Positions 9,634 to 59,938 of a DNA stretch of 64,000 nucleotides are shown piece after piece; the stretch's first letter is position 1, and each line of letters starts with the position of its first letter. The notes beneath the pieces are model-generated. The model was not told the origin of the DNA and did not search any database. It worked only from the letters and a program-made list of their open reading frames with translations. Source of the stretch: a phage; sequence record PZ154897.1; one strand, written 5' to 3'. Position numbers and translations under genes: made by a program.

Positions 9634-10104
9634 TTAATCATGTTTCCACACCCCATCGGTATTTGACCAAAGTCGCTGATTATCTGAACCTCGCCACAGC
9701 TTTTTGGTTGGAAGATTTTTCTCATACTTCCCATCAATAATAACATCAACATATTTAAGCATTTCTAGTTGTTTAATATCTTCAAACTTGTACCCTGTCC
9801 ACAACCAAATGCTTTTATTTGGATAAAGATTTTTTACAGTTTGAACAATGCAATGAACATCATCTCGGTTATCAGGATAAAGAGGGTCACCTCCAGTTAT
9901 AGTTAATCCTTCTATATAATCATTATTCAAACATTCAATTAATTGTTCTAGTGTTTCACCAGTAAATGGAACGCCATTTCTAGCATTCCATGTTGATTTA
10001 TTATAACACCCTTCGCATTTATGCAAACAACCTGTAACGAAAAGAACTGTCCTGCATCCAGGACCATTAACAAAGCAGCACGGGTATATTCTGTCATAAT
10101 TCAT
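9634..10104 (-). CDS. nrdG: Anaerobic ribonucleotide reductase activating protein NrdG (radical SAM)
   Basis: CxxxCxxC cluster motif CLHKCEGC; start set at ATG 10104 (156 aa), which forms an ATGA overlap with the stop of the upstream endonuclease gene. Confidence 0.85.
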   Translation of the reverse strand: MNYDRIYPCCFVNGPGCRTVLFVTGCLHKCEGCYNKSTWNARNGVPFTGETLEQLIECLNNDYIEGLTITGGDPLYPDNRDDVHCIVQTVKNLYPNKSIWLWTGYKFEDIKQLEMLKYVDVIIDGKYEKNLPTKKLWRGSDNQRLWSNTDGVWKHD

Positions 10105-10931
10105 AATAATATCCAATTTTTCCAAGCTTCATCAGTAGAATTACAGCGTTTTAGTATAAGATGTCTAGAAACTTTTATGGCATTTGAGCACTTTTTAATT
10201 GAATCATATTTAATACCGTCAACTGAAACGGTTTTGCTAGTTGGAGAAATTTTTCCATACATTGGATTTTTTGAACCAACTTGAAGTCCTTTTAAAGCTT
10301 TTGAAAGCTTTTGTCTAGATTCCAATGACATGGGAGAATTCTTTTTACCTTCAATAATTCGCTTGCGATGAAGTTCGCGTTCTTCTTCACTCAAAGAATT
10401 GTAATATTTTTTAACACCGTTTGATATAGATAATTTATCTTTCTCAGACCGCTCTCCAGCTAATTTACTTCTAACATCTTTTCGCTTCATAGCTATGCTT
10501 ACGGCTTTATTTAAATTTGCTTGATGCTCTGGCGTACGTTTATATTTCTTTAAAGCACGTGAAATAGCTATTTTAGTTTCTTCTGTTCTCTTTTTACCTT
10601 TATTTGCTAAACTATTTTTGCGGCGATGTTCAAGTGTCTGTTCATAGGCAGTTCCACCTTTTCCACCAGGTTTAATATTATATGTATTTTCTTTTAGACA
10701 ATACTCTTCGGTTACAAGTTCAGCTTCTTTATCATACATTTGTTTTTCATTATCAAAAACATGTAAAATTTCTTTATTAAAATTTTTTCTACCATATTTT
10801 AATAAAGCGGCACGAATCAATGTTCCTGACCCCATATAACCGTCATTTATGTTATCGGTGCTATGCGCACCGATATATTCCTTTGAATTAATTATATTTG
10901 TTATTTTATAAATTATATAATACCTATGCAT
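10101..10931 (-). CDS. GIY-YIG homing endonuclease, Seg-like, NUMOD3 plus C-terminal DNA-binding region
   Basis: 276 aa; N-terminus YIIYKITNIINSKEYIGAHS; paralogous to segB N-terminus at 38739..39404; overlaps nrdD 3' end by 8 nt. Confidence 0.8.
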   Translation of the reverse strand: MHRYYIIYKITNIINSKEYIGAHSTDNINDGYMGSGTLIRAALLKYGRKNFNKEILHVFDNEKQMYDKEAELVTEEYCLKENTYNIKPGGKGGTAYEQTLEHRRKNSLANKGKKRTEETKIAISRALKKYKRTPEHQANLNKAVSIAMKRKDVRSKLAGERSEKDKLSISNGVKKYYNSLSEEERELHRKRIIEGKKNSPMSLESRQKLSKALKGLQVGSKNPMYGKISPTSKTVSVDGIKYDSIKKCSNAIKVSRHLILKRCNSTDEAWKNWILL

Positions 10932-12741
10932 GTTTTACTCGTTTTACCATTTCTTTCATTTTACCTAAATTCCATGGAACAACGCTAGGAGTTCCAAGAT
11001 ATCCGCATGTTCTTCTTATTGTGTTCATCTTTTTAGGATCAGTTTCTCCACAAATAGAACAAACAAATCCGTTTTCAGTAGGAGTCATTTCATGGGTACT
11101 TCCGCATGTAAAACATTTATCTACCGGCATGTTAACACCAAAATAATCTAAATGTTGTGCAGCATAATCCCATATGGCCTCAAGGCCTTTTAAGTTATTT
11201 TTCATATCAGGAAGTTCAACATAAGAAATGTGACCACCTGTCGCAATGAAATGATATGGCGCTTCACGAGAAATCTTTTCAAACGGAGTAATATTTTCTT
11301 CTACTGAAACGTGGAAACTGTTAGTGTACCAGCCTTTATCAGTAACATCCTTTACACTTCCATATTTTTCAGTATCAAGTTTACAGAAGCGATAGCACAG
11401 GTTTTCAGCAGGTGTAGAATACAAGCTAAAAGCAAAACCGGTTCTTTCAGTCCACTGCTTAAGACGAGTATTCATTTTAGTTAAAATTTCTTGTCCAATA
11501 TCACGACCAACAAGAATATTCAATTCGTGAATACCAATGTATCCTAGGGACACTGAACTTCTACCGTTTTTAAATAACTCAATTATATCATCATCGGGTT
11601 TAAGACGAACCCCGAATGCACCTTCTTGGTAAAGAATAGGAGCAACAGTAGCTTTAACTCCTTTTAAGGAACTAATTCTACACATCAATGCTTCAAAACA
11701 TAAATCAATTCGTTCATTGAACAATTCGGCAAATTTCTGTTCATTGAACTGTGTTCCAATATAAGAATCTAGCGCAATGCGAGGAAGATTCAGTGTTACA
11801 ACGCCAAGATTATTACGTCCATCAAGAATTTCATTACCAGTCGAATCTTTCCATACGCTCAAGAAACTGCGGCAACCCATTGGAGAAACAGGAATAGATG
11901 AACCTGTGATAGCTTTATTGTTCTTAGCCGAAATGATGTCAGGATACATTCTTTTGCTTGCACACTCTAAAGCAAGCTGTTTAATATCATAGTTCGGATC
12001 GTCTTTATAAAGATTAACACCTTCTTCAACGAACATAACAAGTTTAGGGAAAATAGGAGTTATCCCGTCACGACCAAGACCTTTAATACGATTTTTCAGA
12101 ATTGCTTTCTGAATCATTCGTTCAGTCCAGTCAGTTCCCGTACCAAATGTAATTGTTACAAAAGGCGTTTGTCCGTTTGAACTAAAGAGAGTATTTACTT
12201 CATATTCATAAGCTTGGAACGCATCGTATACATCTTTTTCTGTTTTAGATTGGGCATAATTCAATGCATCTGCGATTTGCCATTTTTCCGCGTCCTCAAT
12301 ATGTTTCGCATAGGTGCGTTTAACATAAGGAGAAAGTACTTTATCTACATTCGCAAAAGTCGTTCCACCATATTGATGGGAAGCAACCTGTGCAGTAATT
12401 TGTGCCATAATTGCAGTAGCAACACCGATTGATTTAGGAGTTTCAATCTGTGCATTACCGAGCTTAAACCCGTTCTCAAGCATTCCTTTTAAATCTACTA
12501 AACAACAATTAGTAAAAGGCAATGATATACTGTAATCTAAATCATGAAAATGAATTAATCCGACGTTATGAGCATTTACAATATGGCTTGGAAGAATACT
12601 ACAAGCGATATGTTTAGAAACAATACCAGCCATTAAATCTCTTTTTGTTGGAAAGACACGAGAATCTTTGTTGGCATTTTCGGTATTTAATTCTTTATCT
12701 TTATTTGAAATAAAATTTAAAACATCTTTCTCTAAAGACAT
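10924..12741 (-). CDS. nrdD: Anaerobic ribonucleoside-triphosphate reductase NrdD, uninterrupted (no intron)
   Basis: 605 aa; C-terminal zinc ribbon CFTCGS...CSICG and glycyl-radical motif RTCGYLG. Confidence 0.93.
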   Translation of the reverse strand: MSLEKDVLNFISNKDKELNTENANKDSRVFPTKRDLMAGIVSKHIACSILPSHIVNAHNVGLIHFHDLDYSISLPFTNCCLVDLKGMLENGFKLGNAQIETPKSIGVATAIMAQITAQVASHQYGGTTFANVDKVLSPYVKRTYAKHIEDAEKWQIADALNYAQSKTEKDVYDAFQAYEYEVNTLFSSNGQTPFVTITFGTGTDWTERMIQKAILKNRIKGLGRDGITPIFPKLVMFVEEGVNLYKDDPNYDIKQLALECASKRMYPDIISAKNNKAITGSSIPVSPMGCRSFLSVWKDSTGNEILDGRNNLGVVTLNLPRIALDSYIGTQFNEQKFAELFNERIDLCFEALMCRISSLKGVKATVAPILYQEGAFGVRLKPDDDIIELFKNGRSSVSLGYIGIHELNILVGRDIGQEILTKMNTRLKQWTERTGFAFSLYSTPAENLCYRFCKLDTEKYGSVKDVTDKGWYTNSFHVSVEENITPFEKISREAPYHFIATGGHISYVELPDMKNNLKGLEAIWDYAAQHLDYFGVNMPVDKCFTCGSTHEMTPTENGFVCSICGETDPKKMNTIRRTCGYLGTPSVVPWNLGKMKEMVKRVKHA

Positions 12742-13553
12742 AATTCTAATTTATCCTTTTGAAATTCTTCGTCTAAATATGGGTTCCAACCCATTTTAAA
12801 CCTTTTGATGAAATTATCAATTCTAAATTTCGGTAAGTTTAAATCCGCAAAAATAGATGATTTACTTTTAAAATATGGACCTAAATAATCATATAAAATT
12901 TCTGCGTATTTTAACCATAATATACAAGTACCAGATTTAATTGCTCTCGGAGTTTTCCAAGGTTTTACACCATACATCGGATTTCCACTTCCTTTATGCC
13001 TGATAGAAGATGAAATTCCAATTTTAATTTTAGCTTCCTTTGTGTGCGAAAATCCATGATGTGGATTTTCTTTCCAGTATTTTTTAGAAGCTTCTGATAT
13101 TTTCTTTCTGGCTAAATTAGTATGATGCTTTCCATAAAATCCATGATTTTTACCTTTATTACGATTTCTTTTAATCATGGTTATTGATTGCTTTTCTCTA
13201 GTTTCTTTAGAAGGAGAAATACCATACGTTGTAAATTGACCGTCAGCATATGCTAAATTGAAATACTCTTTATTCCATATATCTTTTTCTATATTCTTTT
13301 GAAATTCAGCTTCAATGCTAGTTATTTGTTCATCTCCGACTAATTGAAAATATAATATTTCAACTTTCGGCGTTTCTTTCAACAGGGCTTTTTGAAATTC
13401 GGAAGATGACGAAGACGAATAATAAAATTTACCATTTTTATCAATAATATTCGTTCCGTCAAAAGTGCAATTGGTTTTACTTCCAATATAATAATATGGC
13501 GGGGTTTTAGCATTAATTCTACTAATAAATGATAGTTTATATACTACATTCAT
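12732..13553 (-). CDS. Putative homing endonuclease (GIY-YIG-like N-terminus, NUMOD3-type repeats)
   Basis: 273 aa; VYKLSFI...YYYIGSKTN; repeats GKHHTNLARKKISEASKKYW and GFSHTKEAKIKIG; ATGA overlap with gene 49 stop; overlaps nrdD start by 10 nt. Confidence 0.55.
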   Translation of the reverse strand: MNVVYKLSFISRINAKTPPYYYIGSKTNCTFDGTNIIDKNGKFYYSSSSSSEFQKALLKETPKVEILYFQLVGDEQITSIEAEFQKNIEKDIWNKEYFNLAYADGQFTTYGISPSKETREKQSITMIKRNRNKGKNHGFYGKHHTNLARKKISEASKKYWKENPHHGFSHTKEAKIKIGISSSIRHKGSGNPMYGVKPWKTPRAIKSGTCILWLKYAEILYDYLGPYFKSKSSIFADLNLPKFRIDNFIKRFKMGWNPYLDEEFQKDKLELCL

Positions 13554-31108: not shown

Positions 31109-31374
31109 TAATATTTTTCCTCTGGTTGGAACACAGCACGACAAGCCCACATACTGGCTTCTTTGAGTTTCGTTTTAGCAATAGTTAACTGATCAAGACT
31201 TTCAGCATAATTCTTTGCGAATTCGCAGTCTTCACAATTATCTAATGCTTCCCAGAATTCATCGTATAAAGCATCAAAGATAAGTCCTAAACGAACTTCA
31301 GCGTCTTTGATAGCATTCACTTTACTGATTTTATCGTCAGTATGTGGCTTATAACCTTTAATATCTTCAATCAT
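31108..31374 (-). CDS. Hypothetical acidic protein, about 88 aa
   Basis: ORF track 31108..31410 trimmed to internal Met. Confidence 0.4.
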
Positions 31375-31588
31375 ATTTGACTTCCTCACCAGTGCATAAA
31401 TCATATTCAACTAAACGAATAGGTTCATGAATGCCATATCCCTGAACAGAAATTTCTGTCGTAGGATAAATTCCACTAATATCACCCATATTCCACGCTT
31501 CATTAAATTGCTGTTCGCCTGAATTACTAAACCATTCGGCGAAAGCATTTAGCACATCTTTAGAACCTTCAATAATTATCTTTGCCAT
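31367..31588 (-). CDS. Hypothetical protein, 73 aa
   Basis: ORF track. Confidence 0.4.
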   Translation of the reverse strand: MAKIIIEGSKDVLNAFAEWFSNSGEQQFNEAWNMGDISGIYPTTEISVQGYGIHEPIRLVEYDLCTGEEVKYD

Positions 31589-31962
31589 TACAGACTCTCG
31601 GTAAAGGTACGAGCGATAACGTCGCGCTGCTGTTCCGGAGTCAGAGAGTTAAAGCGAACTGCATAACCGGATACACGGATGGTCAGCTGCGGATATTTTT
31701 CCGGATGCTTAACTGCATCTTCCAGAGTTTCACGACGCAGAACGTTAACGTTCAGGTGTTGACCACCTTCAATTTTAACTGTAGGTTGTGTTTCAATTTC
31801 AATTTCACGGGCATGCAAACCATAGAAAATTTCTGGGTCTACAAAAGAGTCCTCTTTAAAGGTTTTAGAGACAATAATTCGTGCTTGAATACCGTCTTCA
31901 AAATAAATAGTACCTTTATGCGTGCCTTCAAGAATTTGATATGCTTTCATATAACCTCTCAA
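31588..31962 (-). CDS. grcA: Autonomous glycyl-radical cofactor (GrcA/YfiD-like)
   Basis: 124 aa; C-terminal half [63 protein letters not shown] carries the RVSGYAV glycyl-radical motif; this half is noticeably GC-richer than the surrounding phage DNA. Confidence 0.85.
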
Positions 31963-32288
31963 TTAGAAAATAAATTTATCCAAGATTGCTCTTTAATTAA
32001 AAATGGCTCAGAATCATATGCCATTAAACTTTGGGTAATTAGTCCTTTAAAAGGCCCATCAATAAATTCCATGGTAAAATATGGAATTTTATTCATTAAT
32101 CTTGCATTAGGAGCAGTGCACAAAACTCTGCATCCTTTGAATACGCCTTTTTGTAATTTGTATTGCTTAGGATAAAATTCGCTCAAGACGTTGTTATTTG
32201 CCAAAATTTCAAAATGATTCACCAATTTATTTTTAATAGTTTTTGGCGAAAAATAAAGATATTCGAAAAGTTGCGTGTCTGTCATCAT
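31959..32288 (-). CDS. Hypothetical protein, about 109 aa
   Basis: ORF track 31959..32339 trimmed to internal Met, giving a 4-nt overlap with upstream gene. Confidence 0.4.
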
Positions 32289-32872
32289 TGCATTCCAATC
32301 ACAAAAAATTGAGGACGAGTAATACCACCAATGCAACATTTACTATTGCAGCAGTACTGTACAGTGTCAATATGAGCATCATAAATCTTATCCATATCAG
32401 GAGATTTGACAGGCTCATCAATTATATATAAAATTCGCGAAAGAGATAAACCTCTGAACTTGCTTCCTTTATTACCAATAAAACTACACACAGAATCAGT
32501 AAATAAACGAAAACGTATATCATCATTAGAATAACGCGAAAATTCCTTTTTGATGTTATCTGCAGAAATTTTAGCATAAGCTGAACTATTAGAAAGAACA
32601 ATAACTGTTCCACCGTCATACAACCAATTAGCGGCAAAATTAGTTACTGCAATTGATTTACCGGATTGACGTCCACCATCTAGTCGAAGTGTGCAATACT
32701 GCTTAAGTAAGTCTTCAAATGGCAGGATATATTCGTTTTTACAAATTTCTTCTACTCTAGCATCAGAATGGTGTGTAAAAGCATTCATCAGGGATAGATA
32801 AGGACCAGTTAAAAATGTTCTCATTTTGTTATCTCTAAATTTGGGCCATTCCGTGGCGCATGAATTGTCCAT
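32285..32872 (-). CDS. P-loop-containing protein (Walker A GGRQSGKS), 195 aa
   Basis: ORF track; Walker A-like motif. Confidence 0.5.
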   Translation of the reverse strand: MDNSCATEWPKFRDNKMRTFLTGPYLSLMNAFTHHSDARVEEICKNEYILPFEDLLKQYCTLRLDGGRQSGKSIAVTNFAANWLYDGGTVIVLSNSSAYAKISADNIKKEFSRYSNDDIRFRLFTDSVCSFIGNKGSKFRGLSLSRILYIIDEPVKSPDMDKIYDAHIDTVQYCCNSKCCIGGITRPQFFVIGMQ

Positions 32873-32969: not shown

Positions 32970-33386
32970 TTAAATGTAAATATTTTTGCCGTAATACTTG
33001 TACCAGTGTGGCTTCATTAAAATTTTTTCATCGAGTCGTTGTTGACTCAACCTAATAGCTGATTTGCATGGATTATAATCATTTTTCCATTCTACTGGAA
33101 TATCACTGATGTCAGGAACTTCAGTATCTTTTATACTAAACCCGCGTTTTAAGCATTCCGTTATAATGTCTGATTGACGCTTTCGCAAAAATTCTAACTT
33201 ATCGTAAAAGAACGTAACATGACCAGAACCTAAAATAAACTCGGAAGATATTTTAAAATCTTTAACTCGTTTACCATTTGCCACGTGTTTACGAATTATA
33301 CCAAAAACACGTGGCAATTCACGGTATTCTGCGATTAAATGCTGATCAGCAAGTTCAGATACTAAAGTCAAATTAATACGAGTCAT
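32970..33386 (-). CDS. denV: Endonuclease V (pyrimidine-dimer DNA glycosylase)
   Basis: 138 aa; [29 protein letters not shown], recognised as T4 endonuclease V. Confidence 0.9.
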
Positions 33387-33446: not shown

Positions 33447-33977
<531 letters not shown>

Positions 33978-38264: not shown

Positions 38265-38303
38265 CTTATTTCCTGTTTTAATTCGTGATTTAATATACTA
38301 CTA

Positions 38304-38311
38304 TATTTATA
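38304..38311 (-). promoter_or_regulatory. Late promoter box TATAAATA
   Basis: Plus-strand tatttata at 38304-38311, 40 nt upstream of the ATG at 38264. Confidence 0.5.
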
Positions 38312-38343
38312 CCAAAAAGCCCCAACCTTTCGGTCGGGGCTAA
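38309..38343. repeat. 35-bp perfect direct repeat (copy 2) carrying a terminator hairpin
   Basis: Identical to 37766-37800; the two copies bracket the CTS-protein gene 37806..38264. Confidence 0.8.
38312..38341 (-). terminator. Intrinsic terminator ending the tRNA/stable-RNA transcription unit
   Basis: Hairpin 38319-38340 with A5 at 38314-38318; identical to the copy at 37769-37798. Confidence 0.6.
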
Positions 38344-38344
38344 A

Positions 38345-38655
38345 GCCTTGCGGCAACCTTGTCGGGGTTCCACCTGCTAAGGCAAGTGTTTGTACGAAAC
38401 GCCGGGATTCGAACCCGGTTATTAAGCAGTTGACGCTACTTAATATTTTTAAAAGGCCATATCTCGACCATATCCGAACGTTCCGTCAAAAACGCTACTC
38501 GGCTTACGGCAAAGATATTTCCTCGAATCGATAATTCGGTGCGCCGTTTCTGCTGTGATGTAAGAGGGCATCAACAAATCATAAAGATTTATTAACGCAA
38601 TTCCTTACCCAGGGAACATCAGTCCGACGACTTACCGGTAGCGACCCGGTTTCTT
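38345..38655 (-). ncRNA. Probable small stable RNA region (position of T4 species 1 and 2 RNAs), includes a tRNA-like T-arm
   Basis: No ORF; lies between tRNA-Arg and a terminator; cggg-attcgaa-cccgg T-arm-like element at 38403-38419; boundaries not determined. Confidence 0.3.
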
Positions 38656-38658
38656 GTC

Positions 38659-38735
<77 letters not shown>

Positions 38736-38738
38736 TAA

Positions 38739-39404
38739 TTAAAATTTCATTTTTCGACCTTTAAACCATCCTTCTGGAATTGGGTCAGTTTTCTTAATAC
38801 GTTTAGAAACTTTTTCATCTAATGAATGAATCCACATCATACCAAATTGGGAATTCTTTTCGCCCTGTTGGTGTTTATTTCTGGCGTGAGATTCTTTCAT
38901 TTTATTAATAGTTTCAGGAGTATGGGTCTTACCCAAGAAAGATTTAATATTTAAAAATTTCTCTCTATACTTAGGATTATCCCAAAGCTGTTTAAACCTT
39001 TCTGAACCCATTTTACGATATTTTTCTTTAAGGTCTGGGTCGTTCTCAAATCTGGTTTTAAAAGCAGCAGCCCCTTTTAAGGAAGCTTCTTTCTTTTTAT
39101 CCAAATATTCTTTAGTGTTTAAATGGTCCCAACCACCTTCACCACCTAATTTCAAATTATAAACATCAGGGCGCTTTAAAAACTCTTCAGTCACAATATT
39201 CTTTTCTGACTCAAACATAGAGGTTTTATCGTCAAAGAACTCTAATATTTCTTTAGAGAAATTTTCTATACCATACTTGTCTTGGGCTCTTTTTAATAAT
39301 TTACCAGAACCCATATATCCATCATCTAAATTTTCGGTAGAATGAGCGCCTATATAGATTTTATTATTAATTTTATTTGTTATTTTATAAGTGTAATGGA
39401 ACAT
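38739..39404 (-). CDS. segB: GIY-YIG homing endonuclease SegB in the tRNA cluster
   Basis: 221 aa; MFHYTYKITNKINNKIYIGAHS; splits the tRNA cluster as in T4. Confidence 0.85.
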   Translation of the reverse strand: MFHYTYKITNKINNKIYIGAHSTENLDDGYMGSGKLLKRAQDKYGIENFSKEILEFFDDKTSMFESEKNIVTEEFLKRPDVYNLKLGGEGGWDHLNTKEYLDKKKEASLKGAAAFKTRFENDPDLKEKYRKMGSERFKQLWDNPKYREKFLNIKSFLGKTHTPETINKMKESHARNKHQQGEKNSQFGMMWIHSLDEKVSKRIKKTDPIPEGWFKGRKMKF

Positions 39405-39445
39405 AAATATCTCCTATTTCTAAGAGTATTTATGTTCCCAAAATA

Positions 39446-39517
39446 TGGCCCTGGGTGGAATTGAACCACCATCTGGCGATTATGAGTCGCTTGCTTGAAC
39501 CTTCCAGCTACAGGGCC
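39446..39517 (-). tRNA. tRNA-Ile (anticodon CAU)
   Basis: Perfect 7-bp acceptor ggccctg/cagggcc; anticodon loop CUCAUAA; T-arm GGUGG-UUCAAUU-CCACC; CCA not encoded. Confidence 0.75.
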
Positions 39518-39523
39518 TTGATA

Positions 39524-39596
39524 TGCTGATTGACGGAATCGAACCGCCGACATCCTCATTACAAGTGAGGTGCTCTACCTACTGAGCTAAATCAGC
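39524..39596 (-). tRNA. tRNA-Thr (anticodon UGU)
   Basis: Acceptor gctgatt/aatcagc; anticodon stem-loop with CUUGUAA. Confidence 0.75.
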
Positions 39597-39603
39597 GAAA
39601 TTA

Positions 39604-39690
39604 CGGAGGCGATAGGATTTGAACCTATGAGTCACCGGAGCGACTGCCGGTTTTCAAGACCGGTGCATTAAACCACTCTGCCACGCCTCC
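39604..39690 (-). tRNA. tRNA-Ser (anticodon UGA), long variable arm
   Basis: Acceptor ggaggcg/cgcctcc; anticodon loop CUUGAAA; 87 nt. Confidence 0.75.
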
Positions 39691-39692
39691 AG

Positions 39693-39766
39693 TCTCCGCG
39701 GCAGGATTTGAACCTGTGACATTCTGCTCCCAAAGCAGACGCTCTACCAAACTGAGCTACACGGAG
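39693..39766 (-). tRNA. tRNA-Pro (anticodon UGG)
   Basis: Acceptor with one U-G pair; anticodon loop UUUGGGA. Confidence 0.7.
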
Positions 39767-39778
39767 TAAATTAAATTT

Positions 39779-39850
<72 letters not shown>

Positions 39851-39856
39851 AAACTT

Positions 39857-39943
39857 TGGTACGAGAAGTGGGACTCGAACCCACAAGGAAATCATTCCGC
39901 AGCATTTTAAGTGCTGTGCCTTTACCAATTTGACCATTCTCGC
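39857..39943 (-). tRNA. tRNA-Leu (anticodon UAA), long variable arm, CCA encoded
   Basis: 5' GCGAGAA; anticodon loop CUUAAAA; 3' CCA from plus-strand tgg at 39857-39859. Confidence 0.75.
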
Positions 39944-39944
39944 G

Positions 39945-40017
39945 CGGGGAATAAAGGACTCGAACCTTTGCATCTAGCAGTCAAAGTGCTATGCCTTACC
40001 AACTTGGCTAATTCCCA
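39945..40017 (-). tRNA. tRNA-Gln (anticodon UUG)
   Basis: 5' UGGGAAU; anticodon loop CUUUGAC; position 1-72 is a mismatch; directly abuts tRNA-Leu. Confidence 0.7.
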
Positions 40018-57699: not shown

Positions 57700-58358
57700 T
57701 GAGTTTACTTAATAATAAAGCGGGAGTTATTTCCCGCTTAGCCGATTTTCTTGGTTTTAGACCTAAAACTGGCGACATCGATGTAATGAATCGTCAATCG
57801 GTTGGGTCAGTGACAATTTCTCAATTAGCGAAAGGATTTTATGAACCAAACGTAGAATCAGCTATTAATGATGTTCATAATTTTTCTATAAAAGACGTTG
57901 GTACAATTATTACTAATAAAACTGGCGTTTCTCCTGAGGGTGTTTCTCAAACTGATTATTGGGCATTTTCAGGAACTGTGACAGATGATTCGCTTCCTCC
58001 TGGTTCTCCTGTTACTGTATTAGTATTTGGTCTTCCGGTTTCAGCAACAACCGGAATGACAGCTATCGAGTTTGTTGCCAAAGTTCGCGTTGCACTACAA
58101 GAAGCTATTGCGTCATTTACTGCTATCAATTCATATAAAGACCATCCAACTGACGGTAGTAAATTAGAAGTTACTTATTTAGATAATCAGAAACATGTAT
58201 TAAGCACATATTCCACATATGGAATAACTATTTCCCAAGAAATTATTTCAGAATCTAAGCCTGGATATGGCACATGGAATTTGCTTGGTGCACAAACTGT
58301 AACTTTAGATAATCAGCAAACTCCAATAGTACTTTATCATTTTGAGAGAACAGCATGA
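57699..58358 (+). CDS. 11: Baseplate wedge protein gp11
   Basis: ORF track 57681..58358 (TTG) trimmed to ATG 57699 (MSLLNNKAG), overlapping the gene 10 stop (TAATG); 219 aa. Confidence 0.9.
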
Positions 58359-59938
58359 GTAATAATACATATCAACACGTTTCTAATGAATCTCGCTATG
58401 TAAAATTTGATCCAACAGGTACAAATTTTCCGGCAGAGATTACTGATGTTCAGGCTGCTATAGCAGCCATTTCTCCTGCTGGTGTAAATGGAGTTCCTGA
58501 TGCATCATCAACAACAAAGGGAATTTTATTTCTTGCCACTGAACAGGAAGTTATCGACGGAACTGATAATACCAAAGCAGTTACACCAGCAACGTTGGCA
58601 ACAAGATTATCTTATCCAAACGCAACTGAAACTGTTTACGGATTAACAAGATATTCGACCAATGATGAAGCAATTGCCGGAGTTAATAATGAATCTTCTA
58701 TAACTCCTGCTAAATTTACTGTTGCCCTTAATAATGCCTTTGAAACACGAGTTTCAACTGAATCATCAAATGGAGTTATTAAAATTTCATCTCTACCGCA
58801 AGCATTAGCTGGCGCAGATGATACTACTGCGATGACTCCGTTAAAAACACAGCAGTTAGCTATTAAATTAATTGCGCAAATCGCTCCTTCTGAAACCACA
58901 GCTACCGAATCTGACCAAGGTGTTGTTCAATTAGCGACAGTAGCTCAAGTTCGTCAAGGAACCTTAAGAGAAGGCTATGCAATTTCTCCTTATACGCTAA
59001 TGAATTCTACTGCTACTGAAGAATATAAAGGCGTAATTAAATTAGGAACACAATCAGAAGTTAACTCGAATAATGCTTCTGTTGCGGTTACTGGCGCAAC
59101 TCTTAATGGTCGTGGTTCTACAACGTCAATGAGAGGCGTAGTTAAATTAACTACAACCGCCGGCTCACAGAGTGGAGGCGATGCTTCATCAGCACTAGCT
59201 TGGAATGCTGACGTTATCCACCAAAGAGGTGGTCAAACGATTAATGGAACACTTCGCATTAATAATACGCTCACAATAGCTTCAGGCGGAGCAAATATTA
59301 CCGGAACAGTTAACATGACCGGTGGTTATATTCAAGGTAAGCGCGTTGTAACGCAGAATGAAATAGATAGAACTATTCCTGTCGGAGCTATTATGATGTG
59401 GGCGGCTGATAGCCTTCCTAGTGATGCTTGGCGCTTCTGTCATGGCGGAACTGTTTCAGCATCAGATTGTCCATTATATGCTTCTAGAATTGGAACAAGA
59501 TACGGCGGAAGTTCATCAAATCCTGGATTACCTGATATGCGTGGCCTTTTTGTTCGCGGCTCTGGTCGTGGTTCTCACTTAACAAATCCAAATGTTAATG
59601 GTAATGACCAATTTGGTAAGCCTAGATTAGGCGTAGGTTGTACCGGTGGATATGTTGGCGAAGTACAAAAACAGCAGATGTCTTATCATAAACACGCTGG
59701 CGGATTTGGTGAGCATGATGATTCTGGAGCATTCGGTAATACCCGCAGATCAAATTTTGTTGGTACACGTAAAGGACTTGACTGGGATAACCGTTCATAC
59801 TTCACCAATGACGGATATGAAATTGACCCAGCATCACAACGAAATTCCAAATATACACTAAATCGTCCTGAATTAATTGGAAATGAAACACGTCCATGGA
59901 ACATTTCTTTAAACTACATAATTAAGGTAAAAGAATGA
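58355..59938 (+). CDS. 12: Short tail fibre protein gp12
   Basis: 527 aa; repeat-rich fibre sequence. Confidence 0.92.

Follow-up and report, generated by a model that had tools for sequence, protein, structure and literature searches.

How does one gene of a virulent T4-type phage come to carry an AT-rich 5' half and a 3' half with the composition and codon choice of its host? The gene in question is vs.6, a homologue of bacterial grcA, and it lies within a 64,000-nt stretch of phage DNA (sequence record PZ154897.1; hereafter, the window) that is a T4-type (Tequatrovirus) genome segment with phage SYGD1 as its best GenBank match over 1.6 kb (98.6%). A sequence-only reading of this stretch had proposed a GrcA-like glycyl-radical cofactor gene whose N-terminal half was phage-specific and whose 3' half was relatively recently acquired from an enterobacterial host. 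Below, we refer to the 5' and 3' halves of vs.6 as its head and tail.

Gene order around the locus is that of T4. On the minus strand near vs.6 are homologues of vs.1, regB, vs.3-vs.8, denV, e (lysozyme) and nudE, with vs.8-vs.7-vs.6-vs.5...regB forming a block between denV and vs.1 as expected for an orthologue of T4 vs.6, and the matching block in T4 is annotated vs.8-vs.7-vs.6-vs.5-vs.4-vs.3-regB (Table 1). The mechanically called ORF opens at a TTG (31962-31960), which is probably not a real start since it overlaps the stop of the upstream ORF, and the real start is likely the ATG at 31950-31948, yielding the 120 aa annotated for T4 vs.6 (363 nt). At the other end of the gene, the stop codon (TAA, 31590-31588) overlaps the ATG of the downstream ORF as TAATG, and a GAGAG lies within the phage-type 3' end, 5' of that downstream start. 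One tentative idea, plausible for the window, is that the phage-type last codons have been kept because this GAGAG is the Shine-Dalgarno of the downstream gene, although T4 has GAAAGT at that place. Scanning around vs.6 for promoters and terminators returned sites no more numerous than in shuffled sequence, and Rfam searches of the window returned tRNAs only.

Table 1. Features of vs.6/grcA and of the other loci discussed, in window coordinates.
Feature	Position	Strand	Basis
vs.6 / grcA-like CDS, 120 aa plus stop	31588..31950	-	ORF list, Pfam, T4 orthology, 6owr
Mechanical ORF with TTG start	31588..31962	-	ORF list
Shine-Dalgarno-like GAGAGG, 4 nt 5' of ATG	31955..31960	-	direct sequence reading
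Phage-type 5' half: codons 1-59 and first base of codon 60	31773..31950	-	composition, BLASTP of halves
Host-derived tract, 172 nt, codons I60-T117 (EGGQH...RTFT segment)	31601..31772	-	zero mismatches to E. coli K-12-type grcA
RVSGYAV glycyl-radical motif, residues 92-98	31657..31677	-	translation; alignment to 6owr and PflB
Radical-bearing Gly95 codon	31666-31668	-	equals G102 of E. coli GrcA, G734 of PflB
Phage-type 3' end: third base of ACC, then GAG AGT CTG TAA	31588..31600	-	base-by-base comparison
Upstream ORF	31959..32339
Downstream ORF	31367..31588
nrdG	9634..10104
Homing-endonuclease-like ORF between nrdD and nrdG	10101..10931	-
nrdD, 605 aa, uninterrupted	10924..12741	-	Pfam NRDD (2e-170) and Gly_radical
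Homing-endonuclease-like ORF overlapping nrdD start	12732..13553	-
denV	32970..33386	-
e (lysozyme)	33447..33941	-
8 tRNA genes (Arg-tct, Met, Thr, Ser, Pro, Gly, Leu, Gln)	38300..40017	-
Gene 12 short-tail-fibre ORF	58355..59938		Pfam gp12 middle, collar and receptor-binding domains
GC-rich stretch (up to 49%) inside gene 12	59045..59586	+

Evaluating the encoded protein, we found a single Pfam domain, Gly_radical (residues 60-101, E=2e-18), together with alignments of residues 22-120 to the structure of E. coli YfiD/GrcA (PDB 6owr, E=4.6e-42) and of residues 58-120 to PflB 697-759 (PDB 1h16, E=4.8e-26), and the last 60 residues are identical to those of E. coli GrcA at 60 of 60 positions. 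The GrcA/YfiD assignment and the RVSGYAV motif of the sequence-only reading are both borne out, and the product has the features by which GrcA is recognized, being a small (~14 kDa), stand-alone glycyl-radical domain protein with RVSGYAV and a PflB-like C-terminal segment of ~60 residues. Against the NCBIfam equivalog model TIGR04365 it reaches 154.6 bits, where the cutoff is 170 and E. coli GrcA itself obtains 233.9, a shortfall that follows from the diverged N-terminal 20 residues falling outside the alignment; this notwithstanding, RefSeq names the T4 orthologue GrcA. Its orthology with the biochemically tested T4 protein (98.3% amino acid identity), rather than TIGR04365, leads us to infer that vs.6 encodes a working spare part of the GrcA type. 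The T4 protein (Y06I) is activated by PFL-AE and rescues O2-cleaved PFL (Wagner 2001, as cited in PMC8683613). By extension, the host PFL activase (PflA) would put the radical on Gly95 of the phage GrcA, the activated protein would dock onto PFL cleaved by oxygen at Gly734 and restore its activity, and the rescued PFL would sustain fermentative production of acetyl-CoA and formate in the infected, microaerobic cell. With nrdD and nrdG also present in the window, the phage has two glycyl-radical functions, as had been suggested.

Comparing vs.6 with its closest known counterparts places these similarities in context. T4 vs.6, correctly noted beforehand as a known homologue, has the same length (120 aa), the same neighbours and an E. 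coli-like 3' tract, with 96-99% nucleotide identity across the gene, and it differs from the window copy in two amino acids (T54P and R73H in T4), in having 1 core mismatch to E. coli where the window tract has 0, and in ending ACT GAA AGT TTG rather than ACC GAG AGT CTG. E. coli GrcA (YfiD; PDB 6owr, TIGR04365, IPR011140) shares the C-terminal 60 residues, the motif, the alignment over residues 22-120 and, presumably, activation by PflA and docking to cleaved PflB, whereas the phage protein has an N-terminal half only 36% identical and 7 residues shorter, lacks the 22-residue start of the host protein, and is encoded in a lytic early-gene block rather than between ung and eamB. The C-terminal domain of PflB is the part that GrcA replaces after oxygen cleavage, and it is there that residues 58-120 align, but the nucleotide tract matches grcA and not pflB (the tail of Jiaodavirus Kp122, for comparison, is 82-83% identical to E. 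coli pflB).

The two halves of the gene differ sharply in composition. GC content is 49.2% over 31588-31772, compared with 33.7% in the head of vs.6 and 34.8% in the window (SD 4.5% for 185-nt windows), such that 0.35% of 185-nt windows are as GC-rich as the vs.6 tail, with the remainder of these in the tRNA cluster and gene 12. At third codon positions, the tail has a GC3 of 0.45 and the head one of 0.20, and among 60-codon windows of the window's ORFs (mean GC3 0.235, SD 0.068) 0.87% reach 0.45. Codon choice shifts from ATT/AAA-rich in the head to CTG/CGT/CCG-rich in the tail, the latter being E. coli-like (CTG six times, CGT/CGC, CCG). The sliding-window GC analysis and the codon-usage comparison that had been proposed as checks both agree with a GC-richer 3' half, and the boundary that had been placed at about 31770 was right within 2 nt.

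At the nucleotide level, the tail is essentially identical to E. coli grcA. The 3' 185 nt of vs.6 matched grcA at 98.4% identity in 5426 of 5426 complete E. coli genomes (blastn), in which nothing matched upstream of the tract, and 31601-31772 forms an exact run of 172 nt that is at least 99% identical in 5156 of 5432 E. coli records. The only differences within the 185 nt are at 31594, 31597 and 31600, all of them synonymous (E. coli has ACT GAA AGC CTG TAA). Past 31772, towards the 5' end of the gene, only ~45% of nucleotides agree with E. coli grcA, so that a 172/172 match abuts ~45% with a GC step of 49% versus 34%, the kind of break seen in psbA-type recombination. The chance expectation of such a run is ~1e-12 to 1e-16, assuming 80-84% identity as in phage copies that resemble no host gene, and the remaining 63.6 kb of the window gave no megablast match in any E. 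coli genome. In E. coli the tract sits in a chromosomal ung-grcA-eamB context. Differences per 155 nt between the window core and candidate hosts number 0 for E. coli, 2 for a cryptic Escherichia clade, 12 for Citrobacter and 28 for Salmonella, and host grcA tails differ between genera at 12-31 sites per 155 nt, which supports the earlier suggestion of a relatively recent acquisition, taking enterobacterial divergence as the yardstick.

Two parts of that suggestion needed amending. The N-terminal half is indeed AT-rich and phage-type, but it is not unrelated to GrcA: compared alone, the N-terminal halves of the phage and E. coli proteins are 36% identical over 39 aa (E=5e-6, BLASTP), a diverged homology. 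Because the head is a distant GrcA homologue, we read the tract as a replacement of part of an existing phage grcA rather than as a new acquisition. Acquisition from a host holds for the tract, but it was not a one-off, as ~640 genomes and a group of Klebsiella phages carry comparable tracts.

To summarize the distribution of the gene, full-length vs.6 homologues of like architecture occur in ~1,600 phage records, which include many genera of T4-like phages as well as T5-like phages, phages of Aeromonas and Vibrio, and a jumbo phage of Yersinia. In most homologue lineages the tail is only 70-84% identical in nucleotides to the best of 80+ host grcA genes, and the Karam-, Slopek-, Pseudoteven- and Krischvirus, T5-like, Aeromonas, Vibrio and jumbo phages have phage-like tails without a GC step. 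E. coli grcA matched 753 phage records, ~640 of them at 95% or more (Tequatrovirus/Mosigvirus), and these matches always begin at nt 199/200 of grcA, with the 5' half never covered. Using the 171-nt E. coli core as BLAST query, identity bands contained 389 records at 99% or more, 254 at 95-99%, 2 at 90-95% and 107 at 80-90%. The last class consists of Klebsiella phages, whose tail GC is 54-56% against 35% in the head. In all, 643 phage records are at least 95% identical to the E. coli core and 114 at least 95% identical to the K. pneumoniae core, with scarcely any between.

The Klebsiella phages carry their own host's allele. E. coli and K. pneumoniae grcA differ at 19 of 155 sites; Tequatrovirus and Mosigvirus tails depart from E. 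coli at 0-3 of these sites but from K. pneumoniae at 19-20, and the Jiaodavirus tails differ from K. pneumoniae and E. coli, respectively, at 0 and 19 (L195), 1 and 20 (L119), 3 and 18 (Kp122), and 11 and 22 (KP179) sites, the KP179 tail having no close donor in the host panel. Phages of different hosts each match their own host, E. coli or K. pneumoniae, which is again the pattern described for psbA, and the 5' junction is common to both types of phage, lying 3-5 nt before the first Gly codon of E-G-G-Q-H. Jiaodavirus tails had at one point appeared to be without a close donor (88-89%), an appearance that arose from a host panel lacking K. pneumoniae and that was set aside once K. pneumoniae grcA matched. 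The sources of K. pneumoniae grcA were gut-metagenome contigs and a chromosome that PLSDB wrongly lists as a plasmid, and the K. aerogenes grcA (LR134122.1, NCTC10006), which has a frameshift in its record, was left out of codon-anchored comparisons. Several PLSDB 'plasmids' (CP125156.1 [L223], LR134122.1 [L224], NZ_OL790696.1 and others) are in fact chromosomes, complete or in part, among them a K. pneumoniae 'plasmid unnamed2' of 5.37 Mb and E. coli 'plasmids' of 4.8-4.9 Mb.

Other candidates for host-matching tails were rejected. A tail matching Yersinia at 91% (L123/L176) had a host-type N-terminus (MITGIQITK...) and is a bacterial grcA on a viral-classed contig, and L165-L175 and L182-L188, in which 200+ aa precede the tail and a PflB-like signature (NREMLLDAME) is present, were judged to be pflB/tdcE-type genes. 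A possible third and shorter case of host conversion is found in an uncultured T4-like phage with a Pasteurellaceae-type GrcA (L114, IMG/VR contig 3300008607_000007), in which tail positions 93-165 have 2-3 differences in 73 nt from a Haemophilus parainfluenzae-type grcA, including an exact run of 53-56 nt, compared with 20-22 differences from Haemophilus grcA at positions 1-92 (p about 1e-4 to 1e-3); its relatives (L115-L122) are without this patch. In Slopekviruses (Klebsiella phage Matisse, L008, and L106/L107), tail codons 15-20 encode the Klebsiella-type residues TLLDAVEH, with the rest of the tail not host-like (~80% nucleotide identity) and the Glu codon being GAA versus GAG in K. pneumoniae. 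Two residues in TLxDAVxH are host-specific, E/K as against L/E. The Slopekvirus residues could stem from a short patch of old date or from convergence on the host protein, and they give a hint that a match to the host allele may be under selection. Separately, the vs.6 protein of GenBank PV654520.1 ('Pseudomonas phage vB_PSGBLB0006', 142 kb) is 99.2% identical to that of the window; this record resembles a Tequatrovirus, and its Pseudomonas host label may be wrong.

Head and tail of the gene have had separate histories. The window and a Mosigvirus-like phage (L097) differ at 18 of 183 sites in the head and 0 of 165 in the tail core (Fisher p=7e-6), and the genes flanking vs.6 are 70-85% identical between the window and Mosigvirus, compared with 99% in the tail core. 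The window, L097, L098 and L099 each have 0/165 differences from E. coli, with heads that differ by up to 19/183. The reverse pattern is seen between the Jiaodaviruses KP179 and Kp122, with 2/183 differences in the head and 11/155 in the tail (p=0.008). Among nine E. coli-type phages compared site by site, no two share a core difference from E. coli, a star-like pattern; such site-by-site comparisons cover only ~13 phage sequences, and the larger counts above are BLAST identity bands. At the 3' end, the point at which host identity stops varies, with ACC GAG AGT in the window, ACT GAG AGT CTA in Mosigvirus and ACT GAA AGT TTG in T4, and the last 13-25 nt are phage-specific and conserved inside each phage group. 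The core and this 3' end differ accordingly in their distance from the host, with 0/165 versus 3/15 differences in the window (p=5e-4) and 0/155 versus 9/25 in Jiaodavirus L195 (p=5e-9).

To account for these observations, we favor, at a probability of roughly 0.8, the replacement of part of an old phage grcA by host sequence, through repeated host-to-phage gene conversion limited to the homologous stretch. T4-type phages would long have carried their own AT-rich, diverged grcA, and conversion would be confined to the C-terminal segment because this is the sole part similar enough to pair with the host gene. In Tequatrovirus and Mosigvirus, E. coli grcA would have overwritten a segment that starts one codon ahead of EGGQH and ends ~13 nt short of the stop, and in the Klebsiella Jiaodaviruses K. 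pneumoniae grcA would have overwritten the same segment, which points to at least two host-to-phage conversions (E. coli, K. pneumoniae), and probably to recurring ones. Once 150-170 nt are identical, later conversion would be easy, and the tail would tend to re-homogenise to the allele of the host at the time. The head would meanwhile evolve like any other phage DNA, and so would the last few codons, which coincide in part with the ribosome-binding site and start of the following gene. The sequence comparisons establish what the gene is, where the tract begins and ends, that its alleles are host-specific and that head and tail have separate histories; recombination as the mechanism, its host-to-phage direction and its continuing recurrence are what they suggest, with the direction indicated by the host-like GC and codons, the presence of the tract in every E. 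coli genome and the inter-genus divergence of host genes (12-31/155 nt). T4 breaks down host DNA early in infection, which would leave fewer chances for host-phage recombination. Homologies of roughly 50 bp or longer suffice for recombination in T4, however, and marker rescue from cytosine-containing plasmid DNA is routine in T4, which together make patches from host fragments plausible despite host DNA breakdown.

The bare identity of phage and host DNA would, by itself, fit an artefact, with host reads assembled into phage genomes, or a transfer from phage to host, and we regard either as barely credible. The T4 reference shares its in-frame junction with hundreds of assemblies made independently, and no evidence of phage-to-host transfer of the tract was seen: the tract has host GC and codon usage, it is in all E. 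coli genomes in its ung-grcA-eamB setting, and host tails differ at the genus level as expected for vertical chromosomal genes. Nor does the very strong conservation of the C-terminal 60 aa in all phage and host copies rescue a history without recombination, in which a single ancient capture of whole grcA would have been followed by purifying selection on the 3' half and drift of the 5' half. Every synonymous site over 172 nt is identical to E. coli, whereas hosts themselves differ at 12-31 of 155 sites, and other phage lineages under the same protein constraint reach only 70-84% identity to any host with phage-like GC. That Klebsiella phages carry K. pneumoniae synonymous variants effectively refutes this account, to which we assign a vanishingly small likelihood.

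A more serious challenge to repeated conversion is that each host species contributed a single event, after which there was only phage-to-phage recombination and vertical descent; the Tequatrovirus-Mosigvirus similarity island and the shared junction would then go back to co-infecting phages that exchanged DNA. T4-like phages are known to be mosaic, neighbouring genes of vs.6 are patchy in identity, and all ~750 phage records have one and the same 5' junction, although a uniform junction fits a homology limit as well as it fits one event per host with phage-to-phage spread. Tequatroviruses isolated on Yersinia, Salmonella, Citrobacter, Serratia and Hafnia retain the E. coli allele, which also means that re-homogenisation is not fast. 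Against this account, the core differences from E. coli are all private in the sampled phages, with none shared-derived, cores with zero differences persist beside heads that have diverged, the 3' end points of host identity differ by lineage, and tails diverge more than heads within Jiaodavirus. Taken together, we consider a single event per host unlikely. Whether the repeated conversion that we prefer amounts to concerted evolution of the vs.6 tail with host grcA, with the tail set back again and again to whichever allele the current host species carries in strictly lytic, host-DNA-destroying T-even-type phages, is a stronger claim that we hold at even odds.

Beyond vs.6, some other features of the window stand out. 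The denV region is ~55-80% identical in nucleotides to T4 and the adjacent vs genes 91-100%, a step that marks another mosaic boundary, and e adjoins denV, with ipII and ipIII, which intervene in T4, absent. Within 9634-13553, homing-endonuclease-like ORFs with NUMOD3 / I-TevI DNA-binding motifs flank nrdD, and Rfam found no group I intron in the window. Most other GC peaks coincide with the tRNA genes, and for a peak at ~38300-38550, beside tRNA-Arg, no tRNA or Rfam match covers it. The GC-rich stretch in gene 12 is without an E. coli DNA match and is thus not host-derived at megablast sensitivity, unlike vs.6.

The gene itself is already known. A conserved T4-like ORF with a Gly_radical domain was noted by Nolan 2006 (PMC1524935), and vs.6/Y06I has a biochemical role that is textbook-level for T4. 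In the searchable full-text literature we found no description of the nucleotide-exact host tract with host-specific alleles, though an earlier mention is possible. The closest known phenomenon is the intragenic recombination of psbA/psbD between cyanophages and Prochlorococcus/Synechococcus (Zeidner 2005; Sullivan 2006, PMC1484495), which likewise involves a phage copy of a host metabolic gene, patchy %G+C, exchanged segments and phage alleles that cluster by host. The vs.6 tract differs in being single, sharp-ended and exact (0 mismatches over 155-172 nt), with partners known to species in two host genera, a junction that would be fixed by the homology limit, and phages that are T-even coliphages degrading host DNA. 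The vs.6 case is the cleaner one and lies in a model system open to direct testing.

As such, the vs.6 pattern provides unusually clean evidence that virulent T4-type phages swap short patches with homologous host genes in nature, and vs.6/grcA offers a simple model phage-host system in which to measure the frequency and limits of such exchange. Host tracts like the vs.6 tail can mislead host prediction, as well as auxiliary-gene phylogenies that assume whole-gene histories. If concerted evolution with the host gene is true, vs.6 would be a natural, sequence-readable reporter of phage-host recombination and of the recent host species of a phage lineage, and the pattern may reflect selection for a tail that exactly fits host PflB and PflA.
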